A stretch of 64,000 nucleotides of DNA from Candidatus Poribacteria bacterium (GCA_965197475.1 CBDANF010000002.1:992001-1056000); one strand, 5' to 3'. Positions 40,845-43,847 are shown, counted from the stretch's first letter. The notes: generated by a model not told the origin, from the letters alone. Numbers and translations: made by a program.

Positions 40845-43800
40845 TTAGTTCCATTCTTGAATTTTACGCTCCAACAGTTTCCCCAATACCTTAATGAAAA
40901 TTGGTTCAACAATCCGCCCATCGTCAGGTTGCATAACAAGATCTTGTAACCAATCATTTACATCACTAGTTAGGTTTTTCTTAAATTTTGGATCAAGATT
41001 GATTGGTTTACCGAGTTCTTTACCGAGTCCTTCGTTGAATATCTTTATGAAATTTTCTATTTGAAACAGTTTATTTCCTGACTGTTCAGGACTATTTTCT
41101 AATCTCAGAAGGTTCCCGAGACTTTCAGCAGTTAGAATAGTTGTCCAACTGAAATCTTCAAAATCTTCACCAGCCAATATACCATAATTTTCTGTGGTTA
41201 TCACAAGTCGTGTTCTGTCATCAATTAAACCGGCCGCAGCTTCATGTTTTGGTTCTGGTGTAATCTGAAGATCAAAAATAGAATCTCTATCAAATCCCGA
41301 TGCAAAAAGTATTATTTCTTTGAGAAACTTACTATTCTCAGGATTGAGTGTGAAATCTCCATTCGCTAACCAGTGCAGAATACGTGCCCCGTTACCACCA
41401 ATGTATACGTTCGGCATTGTAGGTTTAAAGCCTCTGTTTTCAACAAGGTGCTTGATGAGCAATCCAACGTAATATAAAAGGCCCGAAATACCTAAGGCGA
41501 TAAGTGGAATAAATGATGTGCCTTCGATATTTCCTCCGTAAATGGCGAATTTATTCTTTAAGCCATCTGTAGAATTATTGATCCATGCGTTAATCCATGT
41601 ATCCGCTTGACTATAAAACTTTTCCGACTTGGCTGAGTCTTTTAATGTTTGAATTTCTGCAGCATCAACTTGGAAGTTCTCTAAAAATTCAGGATTGTGT
41701 CTTAGCAGATCTAAAAAAATAGTCCTACCTGCAAATCTGATTGACGTTTGCCAACACAACGTGTTGTCTTGCCAGATTGAGATGTCAGAAGTTTCTCCTC
41801 CGATGTCTATACAGACCGCACCATCAGCAAAACCTCCAAACTGACCAGCAAAGAATTTCGCGGTAGCGATACTCTCTGATTCAAAAGTTACAGTTCCATT
41901 TTGTATCCCTGTTTTTTCCTCACAAGTATTTGTGGCATTATTACATATAGTATTGAAAGCAGCCTTATCTTTTTGTGAAAAGGCAAGTGGATAAGAAAAA
42001 TGCCAGTTTATTAAATTAACTTCGTTATGCATTGCTTCTGCAGCACATTGAAGGCAGATTTGTTCTATGAATGCCTGAGTCCGAATACGATCTTCTGGAT
42101 CGGGTGACCATTTAAGATTACTAACAACATTTTCTTCCAATTTATAATTTTCAACAAAATAGATACGTCCATCCAGTAACGGTTCTAATCTTTCACCCGA
42201 TTGTGATTTCTTTCTCGAATCCGGATGTTGTTGAAATAGACTAAAAAAAGGTGTTTTTTCAAGTCGAGAAGAAAAAAATTGTCTATATACCTCAGTCCGA
42301 CTACTTTGTGGGGAGTTAGTAATTTGGAACAGACGATTTTCAAATGAAATTGGTTCAAGTTTATTTATCGTTGGATCTTGCTTGTAAACAGTAGTGCCAC
42401 TAGTTCCAAAATCAATACCAATATCCCAAGTAGTTACACCTTGCGGTGCATCTTTCGGAGAAATTAGCAAAATGCCTGCCTCCTCGGAATCTATTGCCTG
42501 ATGGTCTTTATATGTACAGAACATTGCTTGAGGAAAAGCAGATGTTTTTGCAATCTCGGTGTTTTCTTCCAAAGAACGCGAATCAAGTGAGCCATCTTTT
42601 TCCAAAATTGGTTTAGCATAAAATGTATTTTGACCGGCTTTTGTAAAATAGGTGAAGTATGTCATCCAATCTGACGTATTAAAATTCGGCCAAACTTCCA
42701 ATACTGGTAAAGGTTCAATTTCAACAATTTCGGGATTTCGAAAGAGTTTATCATCGCCATCATCCTTCTTGACATACTCTTTAGAAATTAGTATATCTTT
42801 TCCATCTCCAGGAGATGGAAGTTGTAAATCTACCTTGATACCATTTGGAGTAGTTGCAAAAGAAATTCGCTTTTTCAATTCGTTAACATTGTATTCTTTC
42901 AACATTTCTTTTTTGATTGGAAGAATTGGTGTTACATCGGCACCGTTCAATTTAAGATTAGTACTTCCTGTAGGTGAGAGAATGTTACTTTCAAGAAAAG
43001 CATTAGATTGGTTGATCACGAAAAGTTTTTCTGTGAAGTATTCTTTAGGTGCTATTGGAAAATTCATACCAGCGAAGAACCCAACAGTCATATTGAGAGA
43101 ATTATTAGATAATTCTGGTAATCCCTCAGGTATTCCTCCTAAATCAGTTGTAAAATTAAGAACTTGTGCTGCTAGATTTCCTTTTATATTTATAGTAGAA
43201 TCAGGAAGAGGAATAATATCATTCTTATAAAATGCATCAAGCCAACCAGCAACTGATCCTTTTTCATCTGCGTCTAACTTTGGAATTGGATCATTTAGGA
43301 ACGGAGGATTAAACCAAGGCACCTTTGAAACCGAAATATACTTAATATAATCAATAGATGTACATACAAGGGTGGTAGGAGAAGTTATCCCAATTGGTTT
43401 GCCATCAAACATAATTAGGTAGAGCCTATCCCAAGTTGTTTTTACATCTAATGTCTGTTCTGGCATCAGTTTGCGTAATGCGCGAAGAAATTCAGATGTA
43501 TTGCCATCGTCTGCAGGAGGAATCGTAATTAACTTCGTCGTTAAAGGAATATTTCGACGCTCTTTGAGTGCAAGCATAGCTAATAGTCCCCTCCATTCAC
43601 CCACAATACAGTCGTGCATAGGGTGGTCAGTATCATAAAGTGCTATCTGAAACAGCAGAGGACGTGCCCACATACTCGGGATGCTGTCAATATCAGTGAA
43701 TTTCGCAGCAACTTTTGTAACCTTAAGGTTCTCAGCGACATTATTAAGGGCAACAGGAGATACCTCTTGCCATGTTCCTTTGTTTGGAAGGATAGTTAAT

Positions 43801-43847
43801 CCGGCACCATCATCCTTTAACGGAGGAAGCAGGGGATAAGTTTGCAT
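40845..43847 (-). CDS. large protein with C-terminal actin/Hsp70/FtsA-fold ATPase domain
   Basis: IGIDFGTSGT (phosphate 1), ESIA (connect 1), CIDIGGETSD (phosphate 2), IGGNGAR (adenosine), K.EAAAGL (connect 2). Confidence 0.82.
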   Translation of the reverse strand: MQTYPLLPPLKDDGAGLTILPNKGTWQEVSPVALNNVAENLKVTKVAAKFTDIDSIPSMWARPLLFQIALYDTDHPMHDCIVGEWRGLLAMLALKERRNIPLTTKLITIPPADDGNTSEFLRALRKLMPEQTLDVKTTWDRLYLIMFDGKPIGITSPTTLVCTSIDYIKYISVSKVPWFNPPFLNDPIPKLDADEKGSVAGWLDAFYKNDIIPLPDSTINIKGNLAAQVLNFTTDLGGIPEGLPELSNNSLNMTVGFFAGMNFPIAPKEYFTEKLFVINQSNAFLESNILSPTGSTNLKLNGADVTPILPIKKEMLKEYNVNELKKRISFATTPNGIKVDLQLPSPGDGKDILISKEYVKKDDGDDKLFRNPEIVEIEPLPVLEVWPNFNTSDWMTYFTYFTKAGQNTFYAKPILEKDGSLDSRSLEENTEIAKTSAFPQAMFCTYKDHQAIDSEEAGILLISPKDAPQGVTTWDIGIDFGTSGTTVYKQDPTINKLEPISFENRLFQITNSPQSSRTEVYRQFFSSRLEKTPFFSLFQQHPDSRKKSQSGERLEPLLDGRIYFVENYKLEENVVSNLKWSPDPEDRIRTQAFIEQICLQCAAEAMHNEVNLINWHFSYPLAFSQKDKAAFNTICNNATNTCEEKTGIQNGTVTFESESIATAKFFAGQFGGFADGAVCIDIGGETSDISIWQDNTLCWQTSIRFAGRTIFLDLLRHNPEFLENFQVDAAEIQTLKDSAKSEKFYSQADTWINAWINNSTDGLKNKFAIYGGNIEGTSFIPLIALGISGLLYYVGLLIKHLVENRGFKPTMPNVYIGGNGARILHWLANGDFTLNPENSKFLKEIILFASGFDRDSIFDLQITPEPKHEAAAGLIDDRTRLVITTENYGILAGEDFEDFSWTTILTAESLGNLLRLENSPEQSGNKLFQIENFIKIFNEGLGKELGKPINLDPKFKKNLTSDVNDWLQDLVMQPDDGRIVEPIFIKVLGKLLERKIQEWN

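Follow-up and report, generated by a model that had tools for sequence, protein, structure and literature searches.

Eight closely packed genes, here called A to H, lie on the minus strand of a 64,000-nucleotide (nt) stretch of DNA from Candidatus Poribacteria bacterium (GCA_965197475.1 CBDANF010000002.1:992001-1056000). This whole stretch is referred to as the window, and positions are counted from its first letter. The intergenic gaps range from 6 to 74 nt, but 185 nt separate genes C and D. Gene D (40845..43847, stop codon included), the subject of this study, starts with ATG and encodes a protein of 1000 amino acids (aa) whose C-terminal half is an actin/Hsp70 (ASKHA) fold domain and whose N-terminal half has no known family or fold. 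Directly upstream is gene C (44033..45472), whose 479-aa product is a tubulin/FtsZ-like GTPase of the FtsZl1 type (Pfam Tubulin_2), as assigned from a profile match and its glycine loops. We regard D as representing an ASKHA family not described before, whose N-terminal module is also new and which occurs in a new FtsZl1/Zorya-like combination of genes.

The ATPase domain of D spans residues 472 to 905 (41133..42434) and is supported by a structural model, Foldseek matches, and motifs. All five ASKHA motifs, whose names reportedly go back to Bork, Sander, and Valencia in 1992, are present in canonical order: phosphate 1 (W474-Y488, WDIGIDFGTSGTTVY, 42384..42428), connect 1 (E656-F666, 41850..41882), phosphate 2 (A677-W692, AVCIDIGGETSDISIW, 41772..41819), adenosine (V814-W826, VYIGGNGARILHW, 41370..41408), and connect 2 (P866-L874, PKHEAAAGL, 41226..41252), each on the minus strand. 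In an alignment of 63 sequences, with identities down to 27%, every motif contains invariant positions (G477, D479, F480, G481, and T485 in phosphate 1; E658 in connect 1; D681, G683, and D688 in phosphate 2; G818 in the adenosine motif; and K867, E869, and G873 in connect 2), and K579 and W580 are likewise invariant. When the AlphaFold2 model of D (pLDDT, 88.1; pTM, 0.78) was compared with the Protein Data Bank (PDB) by Foldseek, the best match was to Ssz1 (4gni; E = 2.1e-8), and EutJ, DnaK, RAC, MreB, MamK, and ParM were also recovered; the top ten matches have a probability of 1.00, E values of 2e-8 to 7e-7, and target TM-scores of 0.32 to 0.57. The C-terminal half of D is an intact-looking actin/Hsp70-fold nucleotide-binding domain, confirming what an earlier note on this DNA had proposed from its motifs, and D is predicted from motifs and fold to bind and hydrolyze ATP. 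The domain is followed by about 95 helical residues (906 to 1000; 40848..41132, minus strand), which end in a conserved helix (VEPxFIxxLxxLL...W) and include no Hsp70-type C-terminal substrate-binding domain.

The resemblance of D to named ASKHA families is confined to approximately residues 667 to 714, around phosphate 2, which is the sole stretch recognized by the MreB, FtsA, EutA, and SrfB profiles. D scores 17.8 bits against MreB_Mbl (PF06723; cutoff, 27), 17.1 bits against Pfam FtsA (cutoff, 31.8), and 21.9 and 24.1 bits against TIGR01174 (FtsA; cutoff, 175.85), where only 40 residues around phosphate 2 align, and a Pfam scan returned no HSP70 match at E ≤ 0.01. A profile of 21 sequences run against PDB sequences reached FtsA and MreB at E values of 0.04 to 0.2, again through the phosphate-2 stretch, and the MreB profile weakly matches 26 of 44 relatives (best E, 3e-6). 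A kinship to FtsA, MreB, or SrfB is not borne out, given that D falls below the thresholds of all of these families.

Residues 1 to 470 (42438..43847, minus strand) constitute the family-specific half of the protein. Neither sequence searches nor fold comparison link them to an entry of Pfam, NCBIfam, PADLOC, or PDB, and the earlier impression that this half resembles nothing known has held. The model contains an alpha/beta part (approximately residues 57 to 265) and a beta-rich part (approximately residues 270 to 465), such that a confidently folded region of 470 residues is without a counterpart among solved structures. A low-confidence segment (residues 46 to 57) leads into the best-conserved motif of the family, DSIPxMWARPLLF (residues 52 to 66, DIDSIPSMWARPLLF, 43650..43694, minus strand), in which P57 and W60 are invariant. 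The remaining invariant positions of this half across the 63 sequences are P310, P381, P387, W394, P439, and G458, and no acidic residue, histidine, cysteine, serine, or lysine is invariant. Because no residue of a catalytic type is invariant, the N-terminal half probably serves for binding or as a scaffold and not as an enzyme.

The family to which D belongs is large and unnamed. A profile search of 1.84 billion representatives, each standing for a cluster at 50% identity, yielded 2672 matches at E ≤ 0.001 (1019 of them at E ≤ 1e-30), indicating that the D reading frame did not arise by chance; among the 150 matches listed, most are full length, at about 1040 to 1130 aa. Candidates sharing sequence words with D include 253 relatives, and for the 120 of these that were listed, no Pfam domain had been precomputed. 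These 2672 representative clusters are thus a family for which Pfam, NCBIfam, and PADLOC hold no model. In public genomes, D occurs in Poribacteria, Acidobacteriota, Omnitrophota, metagenome-assembled genomes of Clostridia, and rumen Selenomonadaceae/Quinella. Viral contigs contain only five weak relatives, and D is therefore no common phage gene. By language-model features, the named clusters nearest to D are Ppx/GppA (0.93; 23% of members) and SrfB (0.88), and those nearest to the N-terminal half of a homologue (P0063) are SrfB-fragment clusters (0.84 and 0.81); every SrfB score is lower than the 0.9 that was required of a lead.

Gene C passes the Pfam threshold for Tubulin_2 (PF13809; 38.6 bits, cutoff 27), and its two glycine loops, GIGGTGAK and GSIFGGTGAS, are conserved across 35 sequences and can be read as the T1 and T4 loops of tubulin. 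PF13809 also matches in Deinococcus radiodurans, Corynebacterium glutamicum, and Methanosarcina acetivorans, which are among the organisms of the FtsZl1 family in the accessible text of Makarova and Koonin (PMC2875224). Hidden Markov models for genes A to H were built from the first loci and run on 139 loci, and the linkage of C to D was counted wherever at least 1.7 kb was available upstream of D. Among genome loci (Poribacteria, Acidobacteriota, and others), a script found C immediately upstream of D, in the same orientation, in 28 of 29, and the 29th (L019) also has C. Among metagenome loci, C adjoins D upstream in 55 of 59 and is fused to it in another 2, with L071 and L082 as the exceptions, and C is directly upstream of D in 3 of 4 IMG/VR contigs (exception, L066). 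Both fusions (L118:5335-10308 and L128:2244-7223, plus strand; 1658 and 1660 aa) have the C domain at residues 5 to 490 and D at 511 to 1650, and since they are only 83% identical, they come from two organisms and do not reflect an assembly artifact. The Selenomonadaceae are organized differently: C is near D in none of the 20 loci with room, the neighbors of D vary, and in all five genomes tested a C homologue (E of about 1e-146) is located elsewhere, beside a B homologue. Adjacency, fusion, and unlinked co-occurrence together argue that C and D are a functional pair, which is the best-supported statement of this analysis and upholds the pairing with a tubulin-fold gene that had been noticed at this locus; the two proteins probably also pair physically.

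This arrangement had been likened to an independent FtsA-FtsZ pair. As in that pair, genes for an ASKHA-fold and a tubulin/FtsZ-fold protein stand side by side, and their products very probably cooperate at the membrane. Unlike FtsA-FtsZ, the tubulin-like gene comes first, D has 1000 aa, including an N-terminal module of 470 aa without a counterpart in FtsA, its scores of 21.9 to 24.1 bits are far from the cutoff of 175.85, and the C-D pair is accessory and mobile in a genome with an ftsA-ftsZ of its own. In that genome, the canonical ftsA (357.8 bits) adjoins ftsZ (172 bits) on contig 3, so the C-D pair is not the division machinery. The independence of the pair stands, as it is additional to the canonical genes on another contig, but nothing suggests a role in division for this patchy and mobile cluster. 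C and D would represent a second, independent pairing of tubulin and actin folds in bacteria, located in a mobile accessory setting instead of the divisome. Outside the window, a 1435-aa open frame of the same genome contains another strong match to the Tubulin/FtsZ GTPase domain (131.5 bits; G000:C2:687565-688053), apart from the ftsZ of contig 3.

The remaining genes of the operon encode membrane or exported proteins. Gene A (45983..47398) specifies a 471-aa predicted lipoprotein, with a lipoprotein-like N terminus and invariant D67 and S71, which together with T/S69 form the motif D-x-[ST]-x-S, as well as T184-D185. These motifs would fit the MIDAS site of a vWA domain; the protein has no Pfam match, and a search of PDB sequences gave only chance-level ribosomal matches. 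Gene B (45497..45967) encodes a 156-aa polytopic membrane protein without a family match, and gene E (39814..40824) encodes a bitopic membrane protein of 336 aa that has both a coiled coil and a C-terminal domain; its sole PADLOC match is a weak one to ZorA1 (E = 0.0038). Among loci with enough room for each count, A is present in 25 of 25 of the genome group and 32 of 35 of the metagenome group, B in 25 of 25 and 23 of 35, E in 26 of 26 and 20 of 48 (sometimes in two to four copies), and F together with G in 25 of 25 and 6 of 30. On these counts, A-B-C-D, with or without E, is the core of the cluster, to which particular lineages have added the F-G pair.

The added pair resembles the motor of the Zorya defense systems. 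Gene F (37611..39752) encodes a 713-aa ZorA-like protein in which membrane helices of the MotA/ExbB type are combined with a coiled-coil tail some 450 aa long. The product of gene G (36802..37536), a ZorB/MotB-like protein of 244 aa, has an OmpA domain for peptidoglycan binding, and its Asp16 stands at the start of the membrane helix. With PADLOC, F matches ZorA at 1.9e-11, mostly over the tail, and G matches ZorB at 3.4e-16. G passes the Pfam OmpA threshold (43.4 bits), the MotA_ExbB match reaches 19.2 against a cutoff of 22.9, and F has no match among PDB sequences. The locus shares with Zorya types I to III a ZorA-like membrane protein whose coiled-coil tail in the cytoplasm is long, a ZorB-like protein that has an N-terminal Asp in addition to its peptidoglycan-binding domain, and accompanying genes for soluble cytoplasmic partners. 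Unlike in Zorya, the soluble partners here comprise a tubulin-like GTPase plus an ATPase of the actin fold, and PADLOC detected no ZorC, ZorD, ZorE, ZorF, or ZorG in genes A to E and H at E ≤ 0.01. The ZorAB-like pair also differs from that of Zorya in being dispensable in most relatives of the cluster and in scoring under the NCBIfam cutoffs.

Two sets of published systems share other components with this locus. Operons of the FtsZl1/Tubulin_2 type are similar in that C passes Tubulin_2 and in their vWA-like, membrane, OmpA, and MotA-type genes (compare DR_0538, DR_0537, and DR_0536; PMC2875224), but the FtsZl1 proteins listed in the accessible part of that paper are single proteins of 910 to 1136 aa, as opposed to a 479-aa C plus a separate 1000-aa D. 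The genomic contexts described there in 2010 include vWA, OmpA, MotA/TolQ/ExbB, kinases, GTPases, and the unnamed families B1 to B9, and the text that is accessible names no actin-fold partner (PMC2875224). D thus adds a component to systems that have been uncharacterized since 2010. The conflict systems of Kaur et al. (2020) likewise combine vWA, tubulin-superfamily, and HSP70-superfamily proteins in patchy operons that were read as NTP-dependent assemblies, although in the available text their tubulin and HSP70 themes are separate types of neighborhood (PMC7159879). The present locus further differs from them in having no TRAFAC (GAP1/DO) GTPase or FNIII-repeat protein by Pfam and NCBIfam scans. 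A literature search, which left most subscription journals and the supplements of Kaur et al. outside its scope, turned up neither an actin-fold partner of FtsZl1 nor a combination of ZorAB with a tubulin-like protein; the D family could be listed in those supplementary tables.

The distribution and surroundings of the cluster are those of a mobile element. D is present in 27 of the 176 genomes of the phylum (19 of the 133 of high quality), in 12 of 39 congeners plus its own genome (G000), and in 18 of 151 sampled Selenomonadaceae genomes. The G+C content of A to E is 0.355 to 0.39, compared to 0.42 to 0.48 over most of the window. The core genes flanking the island, which encode a TPP enzyme (31130-32767) and an ABC permease (50822-52540), are 18,055 bp apart here and 1.3 to 2.7 kb apart, on the same contig, at the empty sites of seven congeners that lack D (G085, G096, G087, G102, G098, G094, and G103). 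By blastn against a locus in another species-level genome (L001 in genome G108), genes A to E (39669-47234) are 96 to 98% identical in DNA, F-G-H are about 80% identical, and nothing beyond the operon matches; the region of the ZorA-like tail (approximately 38301-39669) is without a match, and the flanking permeases of the two genomes are only 84% identical in protein sequence. This comparison suggests that the A-E module was transferred recently and that the ZorA-like tail diverged fast and independently. Either a hypervariable tail or a swapped module could account for the missing tail match in L001. In IMG/VR contigs, divergent C-D pairs occur between integrases, beside two TerD genes, or near tail-fibre/baseplate genes. 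Downstream of one such pair, in an integrase-flanked island (L064:12212-17019, plus strand), are genes for two TerD proteins, a CW_7-repeat protein, and a P-type cation ATPase.

Some relatives of the cluster hint at effector-type functions. At L082:3752-7621 (plus strand), a 1290-aa D relative has a Peptidase_C14 caspase domain (2.9e-13) and HATPase_c_4 as its first approximately 547 residues, in place of the first approximately 330 profile positions of D, and genes for trypsin-like proteases lie downstream in L078 and L108. A conflict role is favored because the cluster is patchy and mobile, because it has a Zorya-like part with a hypervariable tail, because of the caspase swap in L082 and the proteases in L078 and L108, and because Kaur et al. 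provide a precedent in conflict systems with vWA, tubulin, and HSP70-family proteins, as far as the available text goes (PMC7159879); from these we infer a role in defense. The D relative of L082 is preceded by a vWA-like gene, which is on the opposite strand, and followed by a weakly ZorA-like gene. Directly after an E-like gene, L092:11750-14410 (plus strand) encodes an 887-aa protein with dynamin-like LeoBC/LeoA matches (1.4e-15). In the window itself, a 360-aa protein (26300-27379, plus strand) combines a type II nicking-endonuclease-like domain (PADLOC REase_II; 7e-32) with PDC-S07 (7e-26), a candidate defense domain.

D may be the ATPase subunit of a cytoskeleton-type module of two NTPases that it forms with C, and a mobile, conflict or envelope-stress role is the most probable one for this module; we give this account an even chance of being correct. 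C and D would form a stoichiometric complex in which the N-terminal half of D acts as the docking module for C, as is suggested by the fusions, which join the C terminus of C to this half. ATP binding or hydrolysis by D would gate a GTP-dependent assembly of C on the inner side of the membrane, following the logic of FtsA with FtsZ with unrelated sequences and for a purpose other than division. The membrane proteins B and E might tether the pair, and the periplasmic vWA-like lipoprotein A might be an outside sensor or anchor. At this locus, the proton-driven stator formed by F and G would be an added input, which through its long tail would pass envelope perturbation on to C and D and not to nucleases; such a relay from E. 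coli ZorAB to ZorC and ZorD is reported in the accessible text of a study of that system (PMC11946911). The whole would be an accessory, horizontally moving system with an anti-phage/abortive or envelope-stress response, whose output is nucleotide-dependent polymer assembly. That a Zorya-type motor tail controls a cytoskeletal output, with envelope perturbation triggering the co-assembly of C and D near the membrane and the front half of D serving as a new docking fold, is a tentative extension that is more probably wrong than right. If true, it would make C and D the first pair of the FtsA/FtsZ type outside division, acting as effector in a mobile system for immunity or envelope repair. The coupling to a Zorya-like stator in a subset of loci offers a route to ask whether such motors signal beyond nucleases.

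Several results weigh against this account. The locus has no recognized effector (nuclease, toxin, or protease), and PADLOC finds no defense family in A to E or H. Known defense genes are not enriched in the flanks of 19 diverse loci, where 13 of 126 open reading frames (ORFs) match PADLOC at E ≤ 1e-10, mostly to generic kinase, protease, AAA, and dynamin-like families; at a looser E ≤ 1e-5, 6 of 47 distal ORFs of the window match. The cluster genes of the Selenomonadaceae are scattered over the chromosome, which is unusual for a defense system. With respect to the Zorya-like part, the NCBIfam Zorya scores are 23.3 against a cutoff of 190 and 21.4 against 400, and F and G are absent from most loci beyond the Poribacteria/Acidobacteriota group. 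Additionally, the vWA identity of A comes from its motif only, the structural neighbors of D fail to separate a filament-forming actin from a nonpolymerizing domain of the Hsp70 or EutJ type, and the loci that were counted for linkage are not phylogenetically independent.

A serious rival is a cell-biological machine unconnected with conflict, that is, a cytoskeleton for membrane remodeling or compartment shaping in which D is an actin-like filament or a membrane tether. Makarova and Koonin so interpreted FtsZl1 operons with vWA, OmpA, and MotA/TolQ/ExbB genes, in the accessible text of their paper (PMC2875224), and the partners of D are all membrane or envelope proteins. The lack of a recognized effector and of defense genes in the flanks, which detracts from a conflict role, favors this rival, as does the retention of the dispersed genes in Selenomonadaceae. 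Contigs from four metatranscriptome libraries of three studies match parts of A, B, C, D, F, G, and H (within D, 0 to 6 differences over 158 to 554 bases); neither strand nor level can be read from these contigs, which have no silent-region control and may include carried-over DNA, and they are thus only a weak hint that the operon is transcribed and, for this rival, that expression is constitutive. This reading is difficult to reconcile with the patchy spread of D (27 of 176 and 18 of 151 genomes), the insertion with empty sites in seven congeners, the near-identical A-E module elsewhere in the genome of another species, the linkage of relatives to integrases or phage genes, the caspase swap in L082, and a Zorya-like module with a hypervariable tail. 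On balance, we regard membrane remodeling as unlikely, though deserving of serious consideration.

D might instead be an Hsp70-like chaperone or switch, whose beta-rich N-terminal part binds a client, which could be the vWA protein, E, or C, and whose ATP cycles set an activation threshold, an arrangement that has been proposed for conflict systems based on chaperones. Its top structural neighbors are Hsp70 nucleotide-binding domains (Ssz1, DnaK, and RAC), and the subdomain after phosphate 1 contains the invariant Lys-Trp pair, K579 and W580, which may correspond to the catalytic lysine of Hsp70. MreB, MamK, and ParM, however, score on a par with Hsp70, D has no Pfam HSP70 match at E ≤ 0.01, and Pfam and NCBIfam scans reveal no J-domain or GrpE-like partner in the operon. 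The 1:1 fusion of C and D is also more readily understood if D is a stable structural partner than if it is a catalytic chaperone. A switch would be in keeping with the view of Kaur et al. that HSP70 and tubulin proteins are NTP-dependent regulators or assemblies (PMC7159879). We regard this reading, too, as a serious rival, though an unlikely one.

Remote membership of D in the SrfB family (PF07520), with a role as part of an SrfABC-like multiprotein toxin, is very unlikely. The likeness consists of a similar size, about 1000 aa, a phosphate-2 actin-fold motif at a comparable relative position (profile positions 562 to 617 of 992), and language-model similarities of 0.88 for whole D and of 0.84 and 0.81 for the N-terminal half of P0063. 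PF07520, a profile of about 990 positions with a gathering cutoff of 27.1 bits, finds nothing in D at E ≤ 0.05 and no match in its own genome or in 14 control genomes; it touches 3 of 44 relatives at 12.8 to 15.2 bits, only at the generic phosphate-2 motif. HMMER detects no likeness in the N-terminal half, D has no visible secretion signal, and its partners, a tubulin-like GTPase and membrane proteins, include none recognized as SrfA or SrfC.

An envelope machine for adhesion, gliding, or transport, which would use the proton-driven stator and cytoplasmic cytoskeletal elements to move or load a vWA adhesin on the outside in the manner of Agl-Glt of Myxococcus, has equally little to recommend it. 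The operon does encode a vWA-like lipoprotein along with a MotA/MotB-type pair, a GTPase, and a protein of the actin fold, and vWA proteins on 5:2 motors have been proposed as force transducers (PMC12204202), but the stator pair is present in only 6 of 30 metagenome loci, the long ZorA-type tail faces the cytoplasm, and the distribution is patchy and mobile.

The best promoter-like site of the region (TTGACA-17-TATTAT; 47493..47521, minus strand) lies about 95 nt upstream of gene A and is a consensus match only, a scan of the region having found 37 sites compared to 40.7 expected, which is no excess over chance. At the other end of the operon, gene H (35857..36795) is present only in Poribacteria loci and encodes a 312-aa exported protein with a C-terminal membrane helix; no family match was found for it, and its stretch GGGDCEDT is reminiscent of transglutaminase-like cysteine peptidases.

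Three other features lie between the operon and the flanking core genes. On the minus strand, an IS1595-family transposase occupies two overlapping ORFs (34606-35528), with the Zn ribbon at 35169-35528 and the DDE domain at 34606-35268, and this split could reflect either a frameshift mutation or programmed frameshifting. Next to it, a 266-aa ORF (33685-34485, minus strand) matches type II DNA methylase profiles in their C-terminal part only (N6_N4_Mtase positions 137 to 220) and is probably a truncated remnant. At the opposite edge of the island, a 627-aa ORF (48468-50351, plus strand), overlapped by another at 48059-48673, has a weak match to Terminase_6N (E = 8e-4, below the cutoff) and may be the remnant of a phage or phage-like element.

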